22,320 bases of DNA from a virus: the UHGV virus genome UHGV-2170153; one strand, given 5' to 3'. Shown here piece after piece: positions 7,579 through 14,655 of the stretch; the stretch's first letter is position 1; every line of letters starts with the position of its first letter. The position numbers and the translations under genes were made by a program. Under the pieces are notes generated by a model. That model did no database searches. It had not been told where the DNA came from and saw only the letters and a program-made list of their open reading frames with translations.

Positions 7579-8286
7579 TTATGCCGCCTGTTTTAGCTCG
7601 TTAACTCTGATGTTCATTACCTGAACGCATTTAGCCTGCGCCTCCTCGTTTCCAGCCATTAATTGCCAGTCACGCTGATAACGCTCGATGAGTTTTTTCT
7701 TGTCAGTTTCTGTTGACGCATAATCGCTGAAGTCTTTCAGGATTTGTTCGCAGTCAACCGATGGAGATTTCTGGTTGGTATTTTCTGGTGATGGTTTGTT
7801 ATCTGATGCTGGGATTGCCCATCCCGGCAGTGATGGAGGGAGCCAGTAAAATCCTGTTCCATCCTTCAGTTTTGCCCTGTGCCACCCCTGCTTTTTATCG
7901 AGAGATGTTTGTGCGAAACCTTCCTCAAGGTTATACAGATACCGACCGATTCCCCACTGAACGGCAGCGCGCTTCATTGCACCGGAACGACCACCTTTGA
8001 CGGCTTCTACCTGCGTGTTTTCAGCAGCATCCCATTTGGTTACCCATTCGGAATCAATCTTTATTGATATGCCGCATTCAACGCCGCCGTTGTTGGGAAT
8101 ATCGCGGTATTCATTGCGCCATCCTGCTTTGCCGCAAACATCGTCCAGGCGTTTCATGATTGCCCGGTTCGTGACATAAGCCAGCACCATAGCCCACACT
8201 TTGCCATCGCGTGTTTTACCGCTTTGCTGTATTCGCCATTCGATATCTTCAGGGCTGAATGGCTCATCGAATTTATTCAAATCCAT
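7579..8286 (-). CDS. Rad52/Rad22-family single-strand annealing protein (235 aa)
   Basis: ATG at 8286 with GAGGTGA RBS; N-terminal pattern FSPEDIEWRIQQSGKTRDGKVWAMVLAYVTNRAIMKRLDDVCGKAGWRNEY matches Rad52-type SSAP signature (memory); sits in the lambda bet position next to ssb and exonuclease. Confidence 0.7.
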   Translation of the reverse strand: MDLNKFDEPFSPEDIEWRIQQSGKTRDGKVWAMVLAYVTNRAIMKRLDDVCGKAGWRNEYRDIPNNGGVECGISIKIDSEWVTKWDAAENTQVEAVKGGRSGAMKRAAVQWGIGRYLYNLEEGFAQTSLDKKQGWHRAKLKDGTGFYWLPPSLPGWAIPASDNKPSPENTNQKSPSVDCEQILKDFSDYASTETDKKKLIERYQRDWQLMAGNEEAQAKCVQVMNIRVNELKQAA

Positions 8287-8385
8287 AATTCACCTCAGAA
8301 TGGACACGGCCCAAGGAAATAACGCTGATTTAATACTTCGACTCGGGACAAATTAAGGCATACCCGCATTCCTTCGCGGTCACCA

Positions 8386-8544
8386 TTATGGCGATACCAG
8401 AGAGCTTTCTGCGTGTACATGCGTCTCTGTAACTTGCTCTCCTTCACCGTGGTTGCAAGTGACATGAATATCTCCTTCGTTACCGATTAAATCTTTCATC
8501 TGACGAATGAATTCTTCGTCTGACCAGTTATCTGTAAAACTCAT
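8386..8544 (-). CDS. Small hypothetical protein (52 aa) in the gam position
   Basis: ATG at 8544 overlapping kil stop (ATGA); acidic sequence MSFTDNWSDEEFIRQMKDLIGNEGDIH...; no similarity to lambda Gam recognised. Confidence 0.4.
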   Translation of the reverse strand: MSFTDNWSDEEFIRQMKDLIGNEGDIHVTCNHGEGEQVTETHVHAESSLVSP

Positions 8545-8693
8545 TTCCTGCGATACCACGGAAGGTTGATAGCTGATTTCATCGCTTTATTTGCTTCAAG
8601 CCACATTTTTGAATCACCAATAAAGCTGGCTATTACTGCTTTGTTTTGTGCTGCACGAAGCATCTGGTGATTGATGGCTATTTCATTGCGCAT
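8541..8693 (-). CDS. kil: Kil-like host-killing/FtsZ-inhibitor protein (50 aa)
   Basis: MRNEIAINHQMLRAAQNKAVIASFIGDSKMWLEANKAMKSAINLPWYRRK; shares the SFIGDxKM core with lambda Kil (memory); GAGG RBS; below the ORF-track length cutoff. Confidence 0.6.
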   Translation of the reverse strand: MRNEIAINHQMLRAAQNKAVIASFIGDSKMWLEANKAMKSAINLPWYRRK

Positions 8694-8809
8694 AATAAGA
8701 CCTCAACTCTTTTCCATCCGTCACGTAATTTACGGGTGATTCGTTCAAGTAAAGATTCATTTAGTTGGAAGGCACCCATGCGAGCGCCTCCCGCGATTGC
8801 GTAAATCAT
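8678..8809 (-). CDS. cIII: cIII-like protease (FtsH) inhibitor (43 aa)
   Basis: MIYAIAGGARMGAFQLNESLLERITRKLRDGWKRVEVLLCAMK; conserved core ESLLERITRKLRDGWKR as in lambda CIII; AAGGAA RBS; found by manual translation. Confidence 0.7.
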   Translation of the reverse strand: MIYAIAGGARMGAFQLNESLLERITRKLRDGWKRVEVLLCAMK

Positions 8810-8832
8810 GGGTGGTTCCTTATGTTGGTTTA

Positions 8833-9801
8833 TTAGTAGGTTATTTTTGTTGCGAATACTTCGCCTTTTACGATGGCTGTTATGATATTTTTAGCAACAT
8901 CTTCTGATGCGCCAACCTTGATAATGTCAGCAAGTATTTTGTTATTTACTTCTTTCCGGTGAGCTTTATCCTTTGCTCTACGCTCTTCTTCGTCCTTGAT
9001 TCTTTTTTCTTCTGCTATTCTGGCTTGCTCTTTTGCTTCAGCCTCGCGCCGGATTCGTTCAGCCTCCTCCTGTGCTTTTCGGCGTTCTGCTTCAATTGCC
9101 GCCTGCTTTTCTCTTTCAGCTCGTTCTGCTGCCTCTTTTGCTTCGCGCTGTGCTCGTTGCTCGGCTTCAATGCGTTCACGCTCTGCACGTTCCGCTGCGG
9201 CCTTAGCTTCTGCTTCTCGCCTTGCTGCTGCTTCAATTTCGGCTTTTGCCTTTGCTTCGGCTTCTGCTCTGGCTTTCTCTTCAGCTTCTCTTTTTAAGCG
9301 TTCTTCATGCTCTCGCTTTTCCTGCTCCGCTTTGAGTCTTGCCTCTTCTCTTTGGCGGTCAAATTCGCGATCCATCAAAATCGCTATTTCATGGTCAGAC
9401 TCAATTTGCTTTGCGAGAGCTTCAGCTGCTGCCTTAGCTTCTTCTTCGGCTTTAATCCGTGCCTGTTCCTCCTCATAATCAGTAAGAGGCTGGCGCGCCT
9501 TGGCTTTCAGTTCATCAAGGCGATCGCGCACTGTCTTGCGGTTAGCATCAATTAGCTTTGGAATTTCCTTCAGTTCAGCAACAAGGTCTTTGCCAAGACC
9601 ATCGAGATATGTTTTCGTCTGCGCAACTTTATACGCCAGAGAAGCGATCTCCTTTCTGCCCTTTGCCGTTGTGATATCAGGCACAAAGGACATAACTTCA
9701 CGTTCAACCTTTTGGAGAATTTCTTCAATCTGGTCGGCAGACTGAAATACAGTCATCGCATTTGCTTTTTCAATAACAACTAAATCTGTTACTTCACTCA
9801 T
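8833..9801 (-). CDS. Coiled-coil Ala/Glu/Lys/Arg-rich phage protein of unknown function (322 aa)
   Basis: ATG at 9801 with GGAGGA 4 nt upstream (the track's upstream M at 9897 lacks an RBS); long low-complexity central region EAEAKAKAEIEAAARREAEAKAAAERAERERIEAEQRAQREAKE... Confidence 0.75.
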   Translation of the reverse strand: MSEVTDLVVIEKANAMTVFQSADQIEEILQKVEREVMSFVPDITTAKGRKEIASLAYKVAQTKTYLDGLGKDLVAELKEIPKLIDANRKTVRDRLDELKAKARQPLTDYEEEQARIKAEEEAKAAAEALAKQIESDHEIAILMDREFDRQREEARLKAEQEKREHEERLKREAEEKARAEAEAKAKAEIEAAARREAEAKAAAERAERERIEAEQRAQREAKEAAERAEREKQAAIEAERRKAQEEAERIRREAEAKEQARIAEEKRIKDEEERRAKDKAHRKEVNNKILADIIKVGASEDVAKNIITAIVKGEVFATKITY

Positions 9802-10092
9802 ATATCCTCCATCAAAAAAAATCGCCCTCACACTGGAGGGAAAAGAAGATTTCCAATAATCAGAACAAGTCGGCTCCTGTTTAGTTACGAGCGACATTGC
9901 TCACATAGCAGACTCGTAAATCTGCTATAGGCGCTTATTCGCATCGCATGACAACATCAAATTTTTCGAGATTACTTTGTCGCAACAATCCTTTTTCTAC
10001 GCGGTCAGCTTTTCTATAATTATCAAATTAGAAATGTTTAATTACTTCTTTCGTTTCTCGCTCTATAACTTCAACAATGTATTTCTTATTCA

Positions 10093-10371
10093 TCATTCTT
10101 CCCCCAGAGCCTTGCTGATGGCTGCCTTGGCTCGTTTGTATTCGGTTAACTCTCTGCACCCTTCGTCATGCTCGTAAATGAAGACAAGCTCTTGCAGTGC
10201 TTCAAGCAAATCAGGAGCTGCTGCTATCAGTAGCGCATCCTCCCTTTCATTTCTTGTTGCTGCTTCAATGTATGTGTCACCAATCGTCACACCATGGAAC
10301 GTAGTCATCATCTCGTTGACGTTTCTAACCGTGTACTTCCATTTACCAGGCGTACCCTTAAACTCTTTCAT
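10093..10371 (-). CDS. Hypothetical early-left protein (92 aa)
   Basis: ATG at 10371 with GAGG 5 nt upstream (track begins at in-frame GTG 10377); MKEFKGTPGKWKYTVRNVNEMMTTFHGVTIGDTYIEAATRNEREDALLIAAAPDLLEALQELVFIYEHDEGCRELTEYKRAKAAISKALGEE. Confidence 0.65.
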   Translation of the reverse strand: MKEFKGTPGKWKYTVRNVNEMMTTFHGVTIGDTYIEAATRNEREDALLIAAAPDLLEALQELVFIYEHDEGCRELTEYKRAKAAISKALGEE

Positions 10372-10393
10372 ATCCACCTCTGTTGTTTATGCC

Positions 10394-10419
10394 AAAAATA
10401 AAGGCCGACTATGCGGCCT
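10394..10419 (-). terminator. Candidate intrinsic terminator (tL1-like) on the pL transcript
   Basis: Minus-strand hairpin AGGCCG-catagt-CGGCCT followed by TTATTTTTGG; lies between the membrane-protein ORF and the 92-aa gene. Confidence 0.5.
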
Positions 10420-10423
10420 GAAA

Positions 10424-10735
10424 TTACTTAACCAATGATGCCGCATATTCAATTAGGAATAACTTAGGTGCAAGCCAAATCTTCAACCATTCGAAATTGA
10501 AGGCAATAATTAAAACACCCATAATTGAGCCAAATATAGGAACAAATACAGTGCATATATCGTAATAAACCGAAGATATAAAATGTTCATCATTTGGACG
10601 TCCATCGAAAGACGTCCATCTCTCGCCATTATTTCTTGCCGTTCTTGCAAAACTAGGAAGTTTAATTGCTGCAATTAAAAGCAACAATCCAGCCACTTGG
10701 AAAAGTGCGCTATGGACAAAACTCCATATTAGCAA
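10424..10735 (-). CDS. Putative membrane protein, possibly SieB-like superinfection exclusion; start uncertain (TTG) or gene disrupted
   Basis: Two hydrophobic segments (VHSALFQVAGLLLLIAAI, VFVPIFGSIMGVLIIAF); open frame extends upstream to 10849 with no ATG/GTG; position directly after N matches sieB in lambda/P22. Confidence 0.45.
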   Translation of the reverse strand: MLIWSFVHSALFQVAGLLLLIAAIKLPSFARTARNNGERWTSFDGRPNDEHFISSVYYDICTVFVPIFGSIMGVLIIAFNFEWLKIWLAPKLFLIEYAASLVK

Positions 10736-10854
10736 CTGATGAACAACATCAGGAATCTGTGCCTGGCTAAATGAAACAGCCGCGTCTATTCCATTGCTGG
10801 CTTTTTGCAGTAGTTCTACGAGAATCTTGTTTGCTTGTTCTTCTACATCTCACC

Positions 10855-11190
10855 TCAAATAAGTGGTTTGCTGCCTAATTTCATTTTTTGGCGACCAACA
10901 CAAGTCACCCCCATTTCACTGCGTGGCTTGCGGTAGTAAATACGGTTCTGTTTACGCTCGACTTCTTCTGCCTTCTTGCAGCGAAGGCTTCCGAGTGATG
11001 CTGCTTTTTCAGAAAGGCTTAAACGCTTTCTTGGGGCTTCCTGAACAGGTTCCTCACTGTCTGTGCCGAAGATCGAATCGATGATGTTGCATATAGCATC
11101 ACGCTCGATAGCCAGCTTTCTGCGCCGCTCATGACGGCGAGTTTTGGCATTTCCTGCAAATGTTGATTTCCCGTACACGATTACCGTCAT
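10855..11190 (-). CDS. N: Antitermination protein N with P22-type arginine-rich motif (111 aa)
   Basis: MTVIVYGKSTFAGNAKTRRHERRRKLAIERD... (ARM GNAKTRRHERRRKLAIER as in P22 gp24); C-terminus ...YYRKPRSEMGVTCVGRQKMKLGSKPLI resembles lambda N; GAGGAAAA RBS; track start at 11274 lacks an RBS. Confidence 0.85.
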   Translation of the reverse strand: MTVIVYGKSTFAGNAKTRRHERRRKLAIERDAICNIIDSIFGTDSEEPVQEAPRKRLSLSEKAASLGSLRCKKAEEVERKQNRIYYRKPRSEMGVTCVGRQKMKLGSKPLI

Positions 11191-11309
11191 GATGTTTTCC
11201 TCATGTGAAATGGCTTTGGTGGTGATGCGCCAGATGCTGATCTTCTGGTTGCTGTCGTTGCAGCTGCAATTCACATCACCGCCAAACCCATCTCGTTTGG
11301 TATCTGTTT

Positions 11310-11343
11310 GCGCTTTGTCAGCGCCCCATCGAAGTTAAAGAGC
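11310..11343 (-). promoter_or_regulatory. nutL: nutL: boxA (11343..11334, GCTCTTTAAC) and P22-type boxB hairpin GCGCTGACAAAGCGC (11324..11310)
   Basis: Minus-strand boxA-like GGCTCTTTAAC, 9-nt spacer, then boxB with GACAA pentaloop; located between pL and N. Confidence 0.8.
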
Positions 11344-11382
11344 CTGCCAATCTGTTCCGTTTGGCGTCCTGCTGATGGCTAA

Positions 11383-11411
11383 ATAGTACGATGTGTACTT
11401 TATTGAGTCAA
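11383..11411 (-). promoter_or_regulatory. pL promoter candidate (-35 TTGACT, 17-bp spacer, -10 TACTAT) embedded in operator-like repeats
   Basis: Minus-strand TTGACT (plus 11406..11411) and TACTAT (plus 11383..11388); upstream of nutL and N. Confidence 0.6.
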
Positions 11412-11474
11412 TACAAAATGTTCTAAATGCGGTTAGTTTTTTATAACACTTTGTATTTTATTGATTTATATTTT

Positions 11475-11506
11475 GGAAAAAGAAAACCCGACGCTAAGGT
11501 CGGGTT
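11475..11506 (-). terminator. Intrinsic terminator downstream of cI
   Basis: Minus-strand hairpin AACCCGAC-cttagc-GTCGGGTT followed by TTCTTTTTCC; separates the cI transcript from pL. Confidence 0.65.
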
Positions 11507-11536
11507 ATTGTTGTGTGTTTTAGAGTGGTGAGGCTG

Positions 11537-12190
11537 TTAACTAAATGTCTCTTCAGGCCACTGGCTGGCGATAACTTTCCCTACTACGGAACAGCTATCA
11601 TTGCATGGGATCATTGGATATTGCGGGTTTAGTGGTTGTAGGAACACCTGACCGCTATCCCTGATCAGTTTCTTGAAGGTAAACTCGTCACCACCAAGTC
11701 TGGCTATGCAGAAATCACCTGGCTCAACAGCCTGCTCAGGGTCAACGAGAATTAACATCCCGTCAGGAAAGCTTGGCTTGGATCCTGTTGGTGCGGTCAT
11801 GGAATTACCTTCAACTTCAAGCCAAAACGCACAATCACTGGCTTTTTTGGTTGTGCTGACCCATCTCTCCGCATCGCCTTTGGTAAAGGTTCTAAGCTCA
11901 GGCGAGAACATCCCGGCCTGAACATGAGAAAAAACAGGGTACTCATATTGTTTTTTAACGGGGGCAGATGAGTATTCGCCAACAGGTGAAAATGTACCGT
12001 CGTGGTTGAATGAGACGTTATCAATACCAAGGTATTTAAACACCACACCAATCTCGTCAAGAGATGGATGACGAGATCCGCGCAACCAGTGACCAATTCC
12101 ACCCTGCGTCATACCAAGCTCTTCAGCTAACTTCTCTTGAGTTATGCCGAGCTCTTTCATTCTGGATCTAGCCAGTTCATACCATTTCAT
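11537..12190 (-). CDS. cI: CI repressor, chimeric: heterologous HTH N-terminal domain fused to lambda-type C-terminal dimerisation/autocleavage domain (218 aa)
   Basis: C-terminal ~120 aa nearly identical to lambda cI ([37 protein letters not shown]...[11 protein letters not shown]); N-terminal [36 protein letters not shown] is a different HTH; start chosen at 12190 (AAGGG 7 nt upstream; 12196 also possible). Confidence 0.9.
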
Positions 12191-12252
12191 TTTCATACCC
12201 TTATTATTACGCTCTGTACTAAAACCATCCATGCACAAGATGTATTTTTTGT

Positions 12253-12281
12253 TTGCATTCCAAAAGTACATATCGTATTAT
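12253..12281 (+). promoter_or_regulatory. pR promoter candidate (-35 TTGCAT, 17-bp spacer, -10 TATTAT) with overlapping operator-like repeats
   Basis: TTGCAT 12253..12258 and TATTAT 12276..12281, ~20 nt upstream of the cro RBS. Confidence 0.6.
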
Positions 12282-12307
12282 TGTTTCATGGTTACTATGG
12301 AGGGCAT

Positions 12308-12523
12308 ATGAGCAACCTACGAAAATATCGAGAGTCACTGAATATCTCTCAAACAACACTTGCTAAGGCGGTTGGATGCACACAGGGAGCTATCGGACAT
12401 TGGGAATCTGGTCGTCGCTTCCCAGACCTTAAAACATGCCGTGCTCTTGTTGCGTGCCTAAACAAGTTAGGCGCAAAAGTCAGTCTTGATGACGTGTTCC
12501 CACCGGAACACAAAGCCGCTTAA
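12308..12523 (+). CDS. cro: Cro-like HTH repressor (71 aa)
   Basis: ATG at 12308 with GGAGGG RBS; MSNLRKYRESLNISQTTLAKAVGCTQGAIGHWESGRRFP... HTH; divergent from cI. Confidence 0.85.
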   Translation: MSNLRKYRESLNISQTTLAKAVGCTQGAIGHWESGRRFPDLKTCRALVACLNKLGAKVSLDDVFPPEHKAA

Positions 12524-12533
12524 TAAGCGGATC

Positions 12534-12568
12534 CGCTCTTTATCAATCTGCACCGCCGACAACGCGGT
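12534..12568 (+). promoter_or_regulatory. nutR: nutR: boxA CGCTCTTTA (12534..12542) and P22-type boxB ACCGCCGACAACGCGGT (12552..12568)
   Basis: Consensus boxA, 9-nt spacer, boxB hairpin with GACAA loop, just downstream of cro. Confidence 0.8.
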
Positions 12569-12580
12569 AACTAATTAATC

Positions 12581-12610
12581 ACTCATCGAAAGATGAGTAT
12601 TAGTGATTAT
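12581..12610 (+). terminator. Possible tR1-region hairpin
   Basis: ACTCATC-gaaa-GATGAGT stem nested within AATCACT...AGTGATT, followed by ATTATTT. Confidence 0.3.
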
Positions 12611-12632
12611 TTACCTATGGAAATAGTAAGAA

Positions 12633-12929
12633 ATGGAACAAACAAGTTACAGCAAACTATCACAGCGCGACGTTGATCGCGCTGAAACAGATTTACTCAT
12701 CAACCTGTCAACGCTTACACAGCGCGGTCTGGCAAAGATGATTGGCTGTCATGAATCGAAGATAAGCAGAACGGACTGGAGATTTATTGCTTCGGTCTTG
12801 TGTGCTTTCGGAATGGCATCAGACATCAGTCCGATTAGCAGGGCTTTTAAGTATGCGCTTGATGGAATCACAAAGAAAAAATCCCCGGTGGCCGCCGGGG
12901 ACTCTAAGCAAATTGATATGCAATTCTGA
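12633..12929 (+). CDS. cII: CII-like transcriptional activator (98 aa)
   Basis: ...KISRTDWRFIASVLCAFG...ITKKKSPVAAGDSKQIDMQF parallels lambda CII (...KKRPAATERSEQIQMEF); position after cro/nutR. Confidence 0.8.
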   Translation: MEQTSYSKLSQRDVDRAETDLLINLSTLTQRGLAKMIGCHESKISRTDWRFIASVLCAFGMASDISPISRAFKYALDGITKKKSPVAAGDSKQIDMQF

Positions 12930-12961
12930 GGGAATTACTGGATCAATCCACAGGAGTCATT

Positions 12962-13807
12962 ATGACAAATACAGCAAAAATACTCAACTTCGGCAGAGGT
13001 AACTTTGCCGAACAGGAGCTAAGAGTGGCTGATATCGATGATGGTTACACCAGATTCGCTAACGAGCTGCTGGAAGCTATCGCAAGTGCCGATTTAACCG
13101 CTCGCCAGTTGAAAGTTATGCTGGCCTACGTCCGGAAAACATATGGATTCAATAAGAAAACAGATCGAATAGCCGATGAGCAAATTGCTCAGTTAACAGG
13201 ACTGTCAAGGCAGAATGTTAACAAGGCTAAAAAAGAACTGATTTCAATGAATTGCCTGTTTATGGATGGAAATAAAATCGGTGTAAACAGGGAGGTATCT
13301 GCGTGGCAATTCAGCAAGTGTCTCCAAGTTAGCAACTTTGTCTCGAAGTTAGAGACAAAAAATGTCTCCAAATTAGAGACACTCAATGTCTCGAAGTTAG
13401 AGACACACAAAAGACATTCTTTAAAGACAAAAGAAAATATTAATAAACCCCCTATATCCCCCAAAAAAATTTCTCAGAAGTTCGACCCGCTAGAAACAGA
13501 GTTGCCTGATTGGTTATCGGCAGAAACATGGTTGTCGTGGGTTACCTATCGCAAGGAGATAGGTAAGTCGATCAAGTCTAAGCAAAGCGTCACTCAGGCT
13601 ATCAACGTTCTAAGCAGAAGTCTGGAGAAGGGATATACACCTGAAGAAATTATAAACCAGAGCATCGCCAGTGGTTGGCAGGGGATTTTTGAACCCAAGA
13701 CTCCAAAGGGGAAATCTCAACCGAGGCCGCAGCAGCGAGCTATGCAGGAAAACTTTGCCGCCAAAGATTACGGGCAAACTGAAATGCCTTCATGGGCGCA
13801 GGAGTGA
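12962..13807 (+). CDS. O: Replication initiator O-like protein (281 aa)
   Basis: MTNTAKILNFGRGNFAEQELRVADIDDGYTRFANELLEA... matches lambda O N-terminus; AGGAG RBS; iterons inside the gene. Confidence 0.9.
   Translation: MTNTAKILNFGRGNFAEQELRVADIDDGYTRFANELLEAIASADLTARQLKVMLAYVRKTYGFNKKTDRIADEQIAQLTGLSRQNVNKAKKELISMNCLFMDGNKIGVNREVSAWQFSKCLQVSNFVSKLETKNVSKLETLNVSKLETHKRHSLKTKENINKPPISPKKISQKFDPLETELPDWLSAETWLSWVTYRKEIGKSIKSKQSVTQAINVLSRSLEKGYTPEEIINQSIASGWQGIFEPKTPKGKSQPRPQQRAMQENFAAKDYGQTEMPSWAQE
13319..13470. repeat. ori: Origin of replication: four ~19-bp iterons (TGTCTC-N7-GAGACA type, e.g. tgtctcgaagttagagaca) followed by an A/T-rich tract
   Basis: Iterons start near 13319, 13339, 13363, 13387; A/T-rich 13406..13470; encode VSKLET repeats within O. 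Confidence 0.8.
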
Positions 13808-13809
13808 AC

Positions 13810-14655
13810 ATGACGCTGGATGAAAAGATCTCCCAACTGGAGAAAAAACTTGCAGAATTGAGTTCTCCGCCAATTGCTATCGAGCATACAGCTGTAGAAA
13901 TTGGCACTGGCATCTGTGAAAAACATGGTGAGTTTGAGCAGCGTAACCGTTACTCGACTGGGCCAATTAAGTTTGCCTCAAGACCTAGCGAATGCCCGGA
14001 ATGCATGAGAGATGAGCTTATTCGGCTACAGGCAGAGAAGATTAAAATCGACGAAGAATCACGTAAGCGCAATGTCGAGTTTCTGTTGAATAATCTTGAT
14101 ATTCCTGAACGATTCAAGGGTTGCACACTACAGAACTACGAGCCAGTCAACGACGATGCAAAGAGAGTGCTCAGGGTGTGTCAGGCATACGCCAGCAAAT
14201 GGCCTGAGAGGTTACAGAAAGGCGGTGGGCTGGTTATGTGCGGAAAGCCTGGTACTGGAAAGAATCATCTTGCACTGGCTATCGCCCGGCACGCAATTAC
14301 GGAACATCAAAGCTCAGCTATTTTCACAACGGCGCTGAAAATTGCCAGAGAATATAAATCAACATGGTCTAAAAACTCCACCCGCACAGAGGATGAAGTG
14401 ATCCGACAGTTCACTAAACCTGACCTGCTAATTATCGATGAGGTTGGTGTGCAGTTTGGAAGCGAGGCGGAAAAGATGATCATGTTCGAAATCATCAACA
14501 CCCGCTACGAGTGCATGAAGCCAACAATCCTGATTAGCAACCAGAGCAAAGATGAACTGTCTGCATTCATTGGTGAGCGTGTTATTGACAGGATGAATGA
14601 TGGCGGCGGGTGCACTCTTGCGTTTACATGGGATAGTTACAGGAGCAGATCGTGA
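13810..14655 (+). CDS. DnaC/IstB-type helicase loader ATPase (281 aa), in place of lambda P
   Basis: Walker A GKPGTGKNHLALAI and Walker B DLLIIDEVG; ATG 13810 with GGAG 6 nt upstream; track start 13792 overlaps O and is rejected. Confidence 0.85.
   Translation: MTLDEKISQLEKKLAELSSPPIAIEHTAVEIGTGICEKHGEFEQRNRYSTGPIKFASRPSECPECMRDELIRLQAEKIKIDEESRKRNVEFLLNNLDIPERFKGCTLQNYEPVNDDAKRVLRVCQAYASKWPERLQKGGGLVMCGKPGTGKNHLALAIARHAITEHQSSAIFTTALKIAREYKSTWSKNSTRTEDEVIRQFTKPDLLIIDEVGVQFGSEAEKMIMFEIINTRYECMKPTILISNQSKDELSAFIGERVIDRMNDGGGCTLAFTWDSYRSRS

Follow-up and report, generated by a model that had tools for sequence, protein, structure and literature searches.

A probable start-codon-loss allele of the Sf6 gene 34 family downstream of N in a phage pL operon

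What becomes of a phage gene whose reading frame lies open behind a good ribosome-binding site and has no start codon there? The question is raised by a 22,320-nucleotide stretch of DNA from a lambda-like phage (UHGV virus genome UHGV-2170153; hereafter the window), in which the antiterminator gene N (10855..11190, minus strand, start ATG at 11190) is followed on the same strand by an open frame for a membrane protein. The N product has 111 aa and a P22-type arginine-rich N-terminus, and profile matches assign the gene to Pfam PF25694 N_peptide (E=1.1e-25) and to phrog_271. Its stop codon (TGA, 10857-10855) shares bases with the Shine-Dalgarno (SD) sequence GAGGTGAG at 10849..10856 (minus), which is the native ribosome-binding site of the gene that follows. 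Read directly from the sequence, this SD is followed by an ATG (10848-10846, minus) and immediately by a TAG (10845-10843), a start-stop pair that lies in the frame of N and is offset by 1 nt from the frame of the membrane protein. The latter is open from 10849 (GAT GTA GAA GAA CAA GCA...), is closed on its 5' side by an in-frame TGA at 10852-10850, and contains no ATG or GTG before codon 52, nor any ahead of the first transmembrane (TM) helix. Its first canonical start is a TTG at codon 39 (10733..10735, minus), which has no SD. As judged by anti-SD duplex energies, the site preceding the ATG-TAG pair is the only good SD of the region (-6.9 kcal/mol, against +0.3 kcal/mol for the TTG); alternative in-frame starts, including the near-cognates ATT, CTG and ATA, were examined and none has an SD. 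A first-pass annotation had described this layout, namely a frame open up to 10849 with no ATG or GTG start, a first candidate TTG at 10735 that lacks a ribosome-binding site, and a ribosome-binding site with ATG-TAG, 1 nt out of frame, directly after the N stop. The minus-strand coordinates, the duplex energy and the sequence bear out each of these points. It had also offered two explanations: a sieB-like gene disrupted by a small indel, or an unusual coupling or reinitiation arrangement. We asked what best explains the locus.

The frame itself belongs to a conserved phage gene family. Its 140 codons (10424..10846, minus, ending in TAA at 10426-10424) encode two TM segments and match phrog_3054 over its full length (E=8.7e-52; frame residues 2-141 against profile positions 1-137 of 137), a family annotated as 'unknown function'. 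The protein of Sf6 gene 34 (AAQ12224) is 98.6% identical in amino acid sequence to the window copy over 140 residues, and the nearest annotated relatives besides Sf6 are CUS-3 ECRS218_0047 and HF4s_0037, a 'TM helix-containing protein'. We identified 480 database homologues of 120-161 aa, all from Enterobacteriaceae and all named 'hypothetical', none with a Pfam domain. An alignment of homologues (A2) shows 47 very conserved N-terminal residues, beginning M-[E/N]-E-Q-A-N-K-I-L, then a hypervariable middle with two hydrophobic helices, and finally a conserved 21-aa C-terminus, WLKIWLAPKL(F/Y)LIEYAASLVK. The window copy has the same conserved blocks around two hydrophobic helices. It shares this plan with its Sf6, CUS-3 and HF4s relatives, together with the SD, the terminator 3' of the gene and a location behind N or ral in the pL operon; the start codon is what differs, being GTA in the window and ATG in all other relatives except one, which has GTG.

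The product is predicted to be a small two-TM inner-membrane protein. An AlphaFold2 model (pLDDT 79.8) has three helices, at residues 2-72, 93-116 and 119-139; its matches in BFVD were confined to family members, and no PDB entry came within E<=1 (best 3.4). Searches for a function gave a sub-threshold match to DUF1031 in Pfam and nothing in NCBIfam or PADLOC. Because pN/pS is 0.15-0.35 within each length class of the family, we consider gp34 a real gene under purifying selection. At the same time, about 11 of 112 surveyed copies (~10%), in IMG/VR proviruses, are truncated by frameshift, nonsense mutation or deletion, leaving for example 33, 54, 63, 246, 303, 339 or 384 nt. Such a rate indicates that the gene often decays in prophages and that its loss is common and tolerated.

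The family has further features that we record here. In E. coli prophages it falls into at least three length classes (121, 140 and 149 aa) across the loci collected (L001-L114), and remoter relatives are found among Vibrio phages, Salmonella phages of the FSL SP-058 type (~72 kb) and Escherichia phages of ~146 kb. We take the FSL SP-058-type and ~146 kb Escherichia phages to be virulent; if so, the family is not specific to lysogeny. The combination of conserved ends with a hypervariable core could reflect an arms race or recombination at the conserved gene ends.

Alignment of the junction between N and gp34 (A1: window, Sf6, CUS-3 and HF4s) locates the change in the window. In the relatives, the gene starts at an ATG 8 nt after the N stop, and its SD, GAGGTGA, overlaps that stop. 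More than 110 orthologues, including Sf6 gene 34, CUS-3 ECRS218_0047, HF4s_0037 and many E. coli prophages, read ...GGTGA[G/T]AT-ATG-GAA-GAA-CAA, so that the SD is kept as GGTGA[G/T] ahead of the ATG; at the same junction the window reads ...GGTGAGAT-GTA-GAA-GAA-CAA. The alignment contains no gap, and the junction has the same length in all four sequences. Set side by side, HF4s has GAGGTGAGATATGGAAGAACAAGCA and the window GAGGTGAGATGTAGAAGAACAAGCA: two transitions, ATATGG to ATGTAG, turn the start ATG into GTA, and the same two transitions generate ATG-TAG two bases upstream of the old start. The GTA codon (10844..10846, minus) aligns with the initiator methionine of the family, which was found in 30 of 30 homologues in alignment A2, and with position 1 of the phrog_3054 profile. 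Thus the earlier suggestion of a gene disrupted at its start holds, since each orthologue examined has an ATG, or in one case a GTG, exactly where the window has GTA, and the small indel that had been proposed gives way to two base substitutions. The family typically has a functional start, ATG or rarely GTG, 5-8 nt after the SD GGTGA, and the window copy has none. It is a member of phrog_3054 by descent, departing from the family in its start codon only, and is best described as a start-less allele. Overall, sequence comparison makes it likely that the locus carries Sf6 gene 34 (phrog_3054), an accessory phage gene that is conserved though uncharacterised, in the form of an allele that has lost its start codon.

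The route to this allele can be read in part from its relatives. We scanned IMG/VR with ATRTRGAAGAACAAGCAAACAAGAT and pooled the matches with the annotated loci; 113 of these loci read ATATGG at the start site, one reads ATGTGG and none reads ATGTAG. The single ATGTGG copy is from E. coli strain 3CM (locus L004, NZ_CM137008, WP_167814875), where RefSeq annotates a GTG start, and from -41 to +152 it differs from the window solely at the third base of the start codon. The simplest path would be ATG to GTG to GTA, with the 3CM allele representing the one-step intermediate: the A-to-G step would give GTG, still a start, and the G-to-A step GTA, no longer a start. The A-to-G step in 3CM and the window may be of common descent, though identity from -41 to +152 says little on this point, as that stretch is conserved in all copies. 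Compared with the other 140-aa copies, the only private substitution of the window copy is this G-to-A change in the third base of the start codon, and the closest gene body (locus L102) differs from it at just two further positions. Since the rest of the gene is intact and its sole private substitution sits in the start codon, the comparison points to a recent loss. The lack of further decay in the frame fits a very recent loss, but would fit continued weak use as well.

How would such an allele behave? Whether they are recruited by the SD or have just terminated at the N stop, ribosomes would meet only the out-of-frame AUG. An initiation complex formed there should terminate immediately on the UAG and be released, leaving the 140-codon frame essentially untranslated, at an expected level no higher than ~0.01-1% of that from an ATG. 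In E. coli, codons other than AUG, GUG, UUG and four near-cognates initiate at ~0.01-1% of the AUG level (bioRxiv 10.1101/063800), a range that covers the class to which GUA belongs; the paper lists no separate value for this codon. Reinitiation in the gp34 frame should likewise be negligible, because the codon overlapping the AUG is GUA. The window allele would thus be null or severely reduced, and the gene is most likely switched off. In lambda, RNA polymerase modified by N resists both Rho and intrinsic terminators. If the same applies here, ~420 nt of untranslated RNA ahead of the terminator at 10419-10402 should not be strongly polar on the downstream genes of the pL operon, and this expected lack of polarity with a termination-resistant polymerase may be why the phage tolerates loss of the start.

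From the same comparison we regard the ATG-TAG pair as a mutational by-product and not as an evolved element. Counting SD cores followed by ATG-stop gives a single case in the window, that at the N/gp34 junction, compared with ~2.4 expected in shuffled sequence, so the motif is statistically unremarkable; it is present at the junction because the native SD of the gene is re-used. The idea of an unusual coupling or reinitiation arrangement finds no support among relatives either. More than 110 orthologous loci were compared, and 0 of 113 loci other than the window have ATG-TAG; the 5,426 complete E. coli genomes and the JGI metagenome contigs lack it as well, and the codon that overlaps it, GTA, is not a start codon.

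The strongest competing explanation is that the allele is leaky. Initiation on the AUG and termination on the UAG could be followed by reinitiation on the overlapping GUA, or the GUA could be used directly, giving a hypomorph, kept by selection, in which a membrane protein that may be costly is made in small but functional amounts. The geometry of AUG-UAG over GUA does mirror that of AUGUGA sites, at which termination feeds reinitiation on an overlapping GUG (Kohl et al., PMC9841429), and start-stops in E. coli do bind ribosomes (Meydan et al., bioRxiv 10.1101/520783). The frame is also intact, and the allele is present in two assemblies. However, a frame should still be intact in any case soon after a single mutation, no other lineage conserves the arrangement, and GUA is neither a start nor a near-cognate and belongs to a class initiating at ~0.01-1% of AUG. 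Against the initiator anticodon it has a wobble at G1 and a mismatch at A3. We consider leaky expression unlikely, though less so than any other alternative. A stronger form of the idea is more doubtful still: AUG-UAG over GUA could be a working throttle that captures ribosomes arriving from N or brought in by the SD, releases most of them and lets a small fraction reinitiate, supplying trace levels of a costly early membrane protein in this phage lineage. If true, nature would here provide an example of a start-stop that mediates reinitiation on a codon that is not a start; we think it improbable.

Comparison with known start-stop sites clarifies both the resemblance and its limits. Like the E. 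coli start-stop minimal ORFs in yecJ and hslR (bioRxiv 10.1101/520783), the window site consists of an SD, an AUG and an immediate stop (GAGGTGAG-ATG-TAG, 10856-10843), and here as at AUGUGA sites the ribosome would be expected to bind and be released without making a peptide. The known sites, however, are located inside or in front of ORFs with a start of their own, or overlap a real GUG, whereas the start-stop in the window overlaps GUA, is shared by no orthologue and replaces the only start of its gene instead of modulating it. The canonical GUG that overlaps both a 5' AUG and the stop at AUGUGA sites is absent. The 3CM prophage has a usable GTG start in an AUGUG ambiguous site of the type studied in PMC9841429. 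It shares with the window the A-to-G change that creates the out-of-frame ATG; in 3CM, this ATG opens a 10-codon ORF (L004 1663-1695; ATG TGG AAG AAC AAG CAA ACA AGA TTC TCG TAG) and no start-stop.

Could a shorter protein be made instead? The TTG at 10735, as the first canonical in-frame start, opens the longest ORF that a mechanical search would report, and its product would be an N-terminally truncated protein of 103 aa. This is very unlikely to be real. Besides having no SD (+0.3 kcal/mol), such a product would miss the best-conserved stretch of the family, residues 1-38; none of the orthologues starts there, and the assembly index contains no record of the 103-aa protein.

A sequencing or assembly error that corrupted a normal ATG or GTG is about as improbable. 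The decisive G-to-A change is indeed a single base, private to the lineage of the window. Searching the assembly index for exact copies of the N protein and of the 92-aa protein encoded downstream, we retrieved two ENA contigs. One, ERZ1304089 NODE_696 (38,300 bp, coverage 11), is 100% identical to window positions 7855-14190; the other, ERZ1304610 NODE_567 (41,688 bp, coverage 18.5), is identical over 2,679 bp. ATGTAG is present on each of them, and on neither is a gene called between N and the 92-aa gene. The index lists three samples for the ERZ1304089 contig and two for the ERZ1304610 contig, plus further similar places. Because the identical allele is present in two separate metagenome assemblies, on contigs of different length, sequencing error is an unlikely origin of the GTA allele; substitution errors seldom survive consensus at 11x or 18.5x depth. 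The two accession numbers are close, so a single study or host lineage may be the source of both contigs, and their independence is uncertain. The other collections searched did not contain the allele. Among the 5,426 complete E. coli genomes there was no exact match to the window variant, 3CM being the best with one mismatch; none of 107 matching stretches in IMG/VR read ATGTAG; the INPHARED phages gave no contiguous match to the variant; the JGI metagenome contigs contained neither ATGTAG nor ATGTGG; and the GTDB representative genomes gave one unrelated MAG contig, whose start reads ATATGG, and no copy of the window variant.

Least plausible of all, and refuted by the alignment, is a small indel that shifted the frame of the ATG, or a programmed frameshift that joins the ATG to the membrane ORF: the ATG is indeed one nucleotide out of frame, but alignment A1 is ungapped, the TAG follows the ATG directly, there is no slippery sequence, and the initiator tRNA, as read from the sequence, could not re-pair on GAU (-1) or UGU (+1). 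The first-pass annotation had allowed that reads might reveal an indel restoring an ATG-initiated frame; this is not what explains the site, the allele being identical in the two assemblies.

The membrane gene had also been called sieB-like. SieB was rejected as a candidate: the frame has no Pfam SieB (PF14163) match at E<=1, lambda SieB gave a BLASTP E of 66, and PADLOC gave no match. The name therefore does not stand, and the family is phrog_3054, that of Sf6 gene 34. The likeness is one of type and place, since SieB of lambda and P22 is, like the window gene, a small membrane protein of the early-left region near N and ral. SieB is a superinfection-exclusion protein, marked by an exclusion or abortive-infection phenotype and by expression in the lysogen from a promoter of its own. 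The orientation differs, however: lambda sieB lies on the strand opposite to N (NC_001416), whereas the window gene shares the orientation of N and is coupled to it.

We conclude that this is an ordinary start-codon-loss event in a catalogued phage gene, with no wider biological consequence. Its value is mainly for annotation, for which the correct label would be "Sf6 gp34-family gene, start codon lost"; gene callers pass over the gene, as happened on the two ENA contigs, or would call a spurious 103-aa protein from the TTG. Beyond that, ATG, GTG and GTA at one SD form a natural allelic series that could be used in tests of start-stops and reinitiation, and the allele would show that the lineage of the window can do without an early membrane protein that is widespread among phages.

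The surroundings of the junction have the features of a pL operon. A pL-like promoter, TTGACT-17-TACTAT at 11383..11411 (minus), was found by promoter scan at a position that matches the pL annotation of Sf6, and it would drive both N and the gp34-family gene; the scan found no promoter-like site inside N upstream of the latter. Directly 3' of the gp34-family gene is an intrinsic-terminator-like hairpin, AGGCCGCATAGTCGGCCT, with a T run (10392..10419, minus), and the hairpin is kept in Sf6, CUS-3 and HF4s. Between pL and N, a nutL-like site read from the sequence (11310..11343, minus) comprises boxA GCTCTTTAAC at 11343-11334 and boxB GCGCTGACAAAGCGC at 11324-11310. We take boxB to be P22-type by comparison with the P22 nut sites; a P22-type boxB (GCGCTGACAAAGCGC) in the upstream nutL is consistent with the P22-type N-terminus of N. 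The N protein itself looks mosaic, joining the P22-type arginine-rich N-terminus (GNAKTRRHERRRKLAIER) to what we take to be a phage-21-like C-terminus (ASLGSLRCKKAEEVERKQNRIYY...GSKPLI), again by reference to P22 gene 24 and phage 21 N.

Two further observations concern other parts of the window. Between the repressor gene and pL, at 11485-11506, is a perfect 8-bp hairpin, AACCCGAC...GTCGGGTT, which scores as terminator-like on both strands and has its T run on the minus strand. Finally, a 354-aa ORF at 8833-9897 (minus) encodes an extremely charged, repetitive coiled-coil with runs such as EAEAKAKAE and REAEEKAR. Its start is uncertain, since the assembly index calls a 322-aa product, and its relatives are labelled 'TolA', 'coiled-coil domain-containing protein' or 'antitoxin protein', the last with the note 'Gam antitoxin protein; similar to phage phi80 Agt'.
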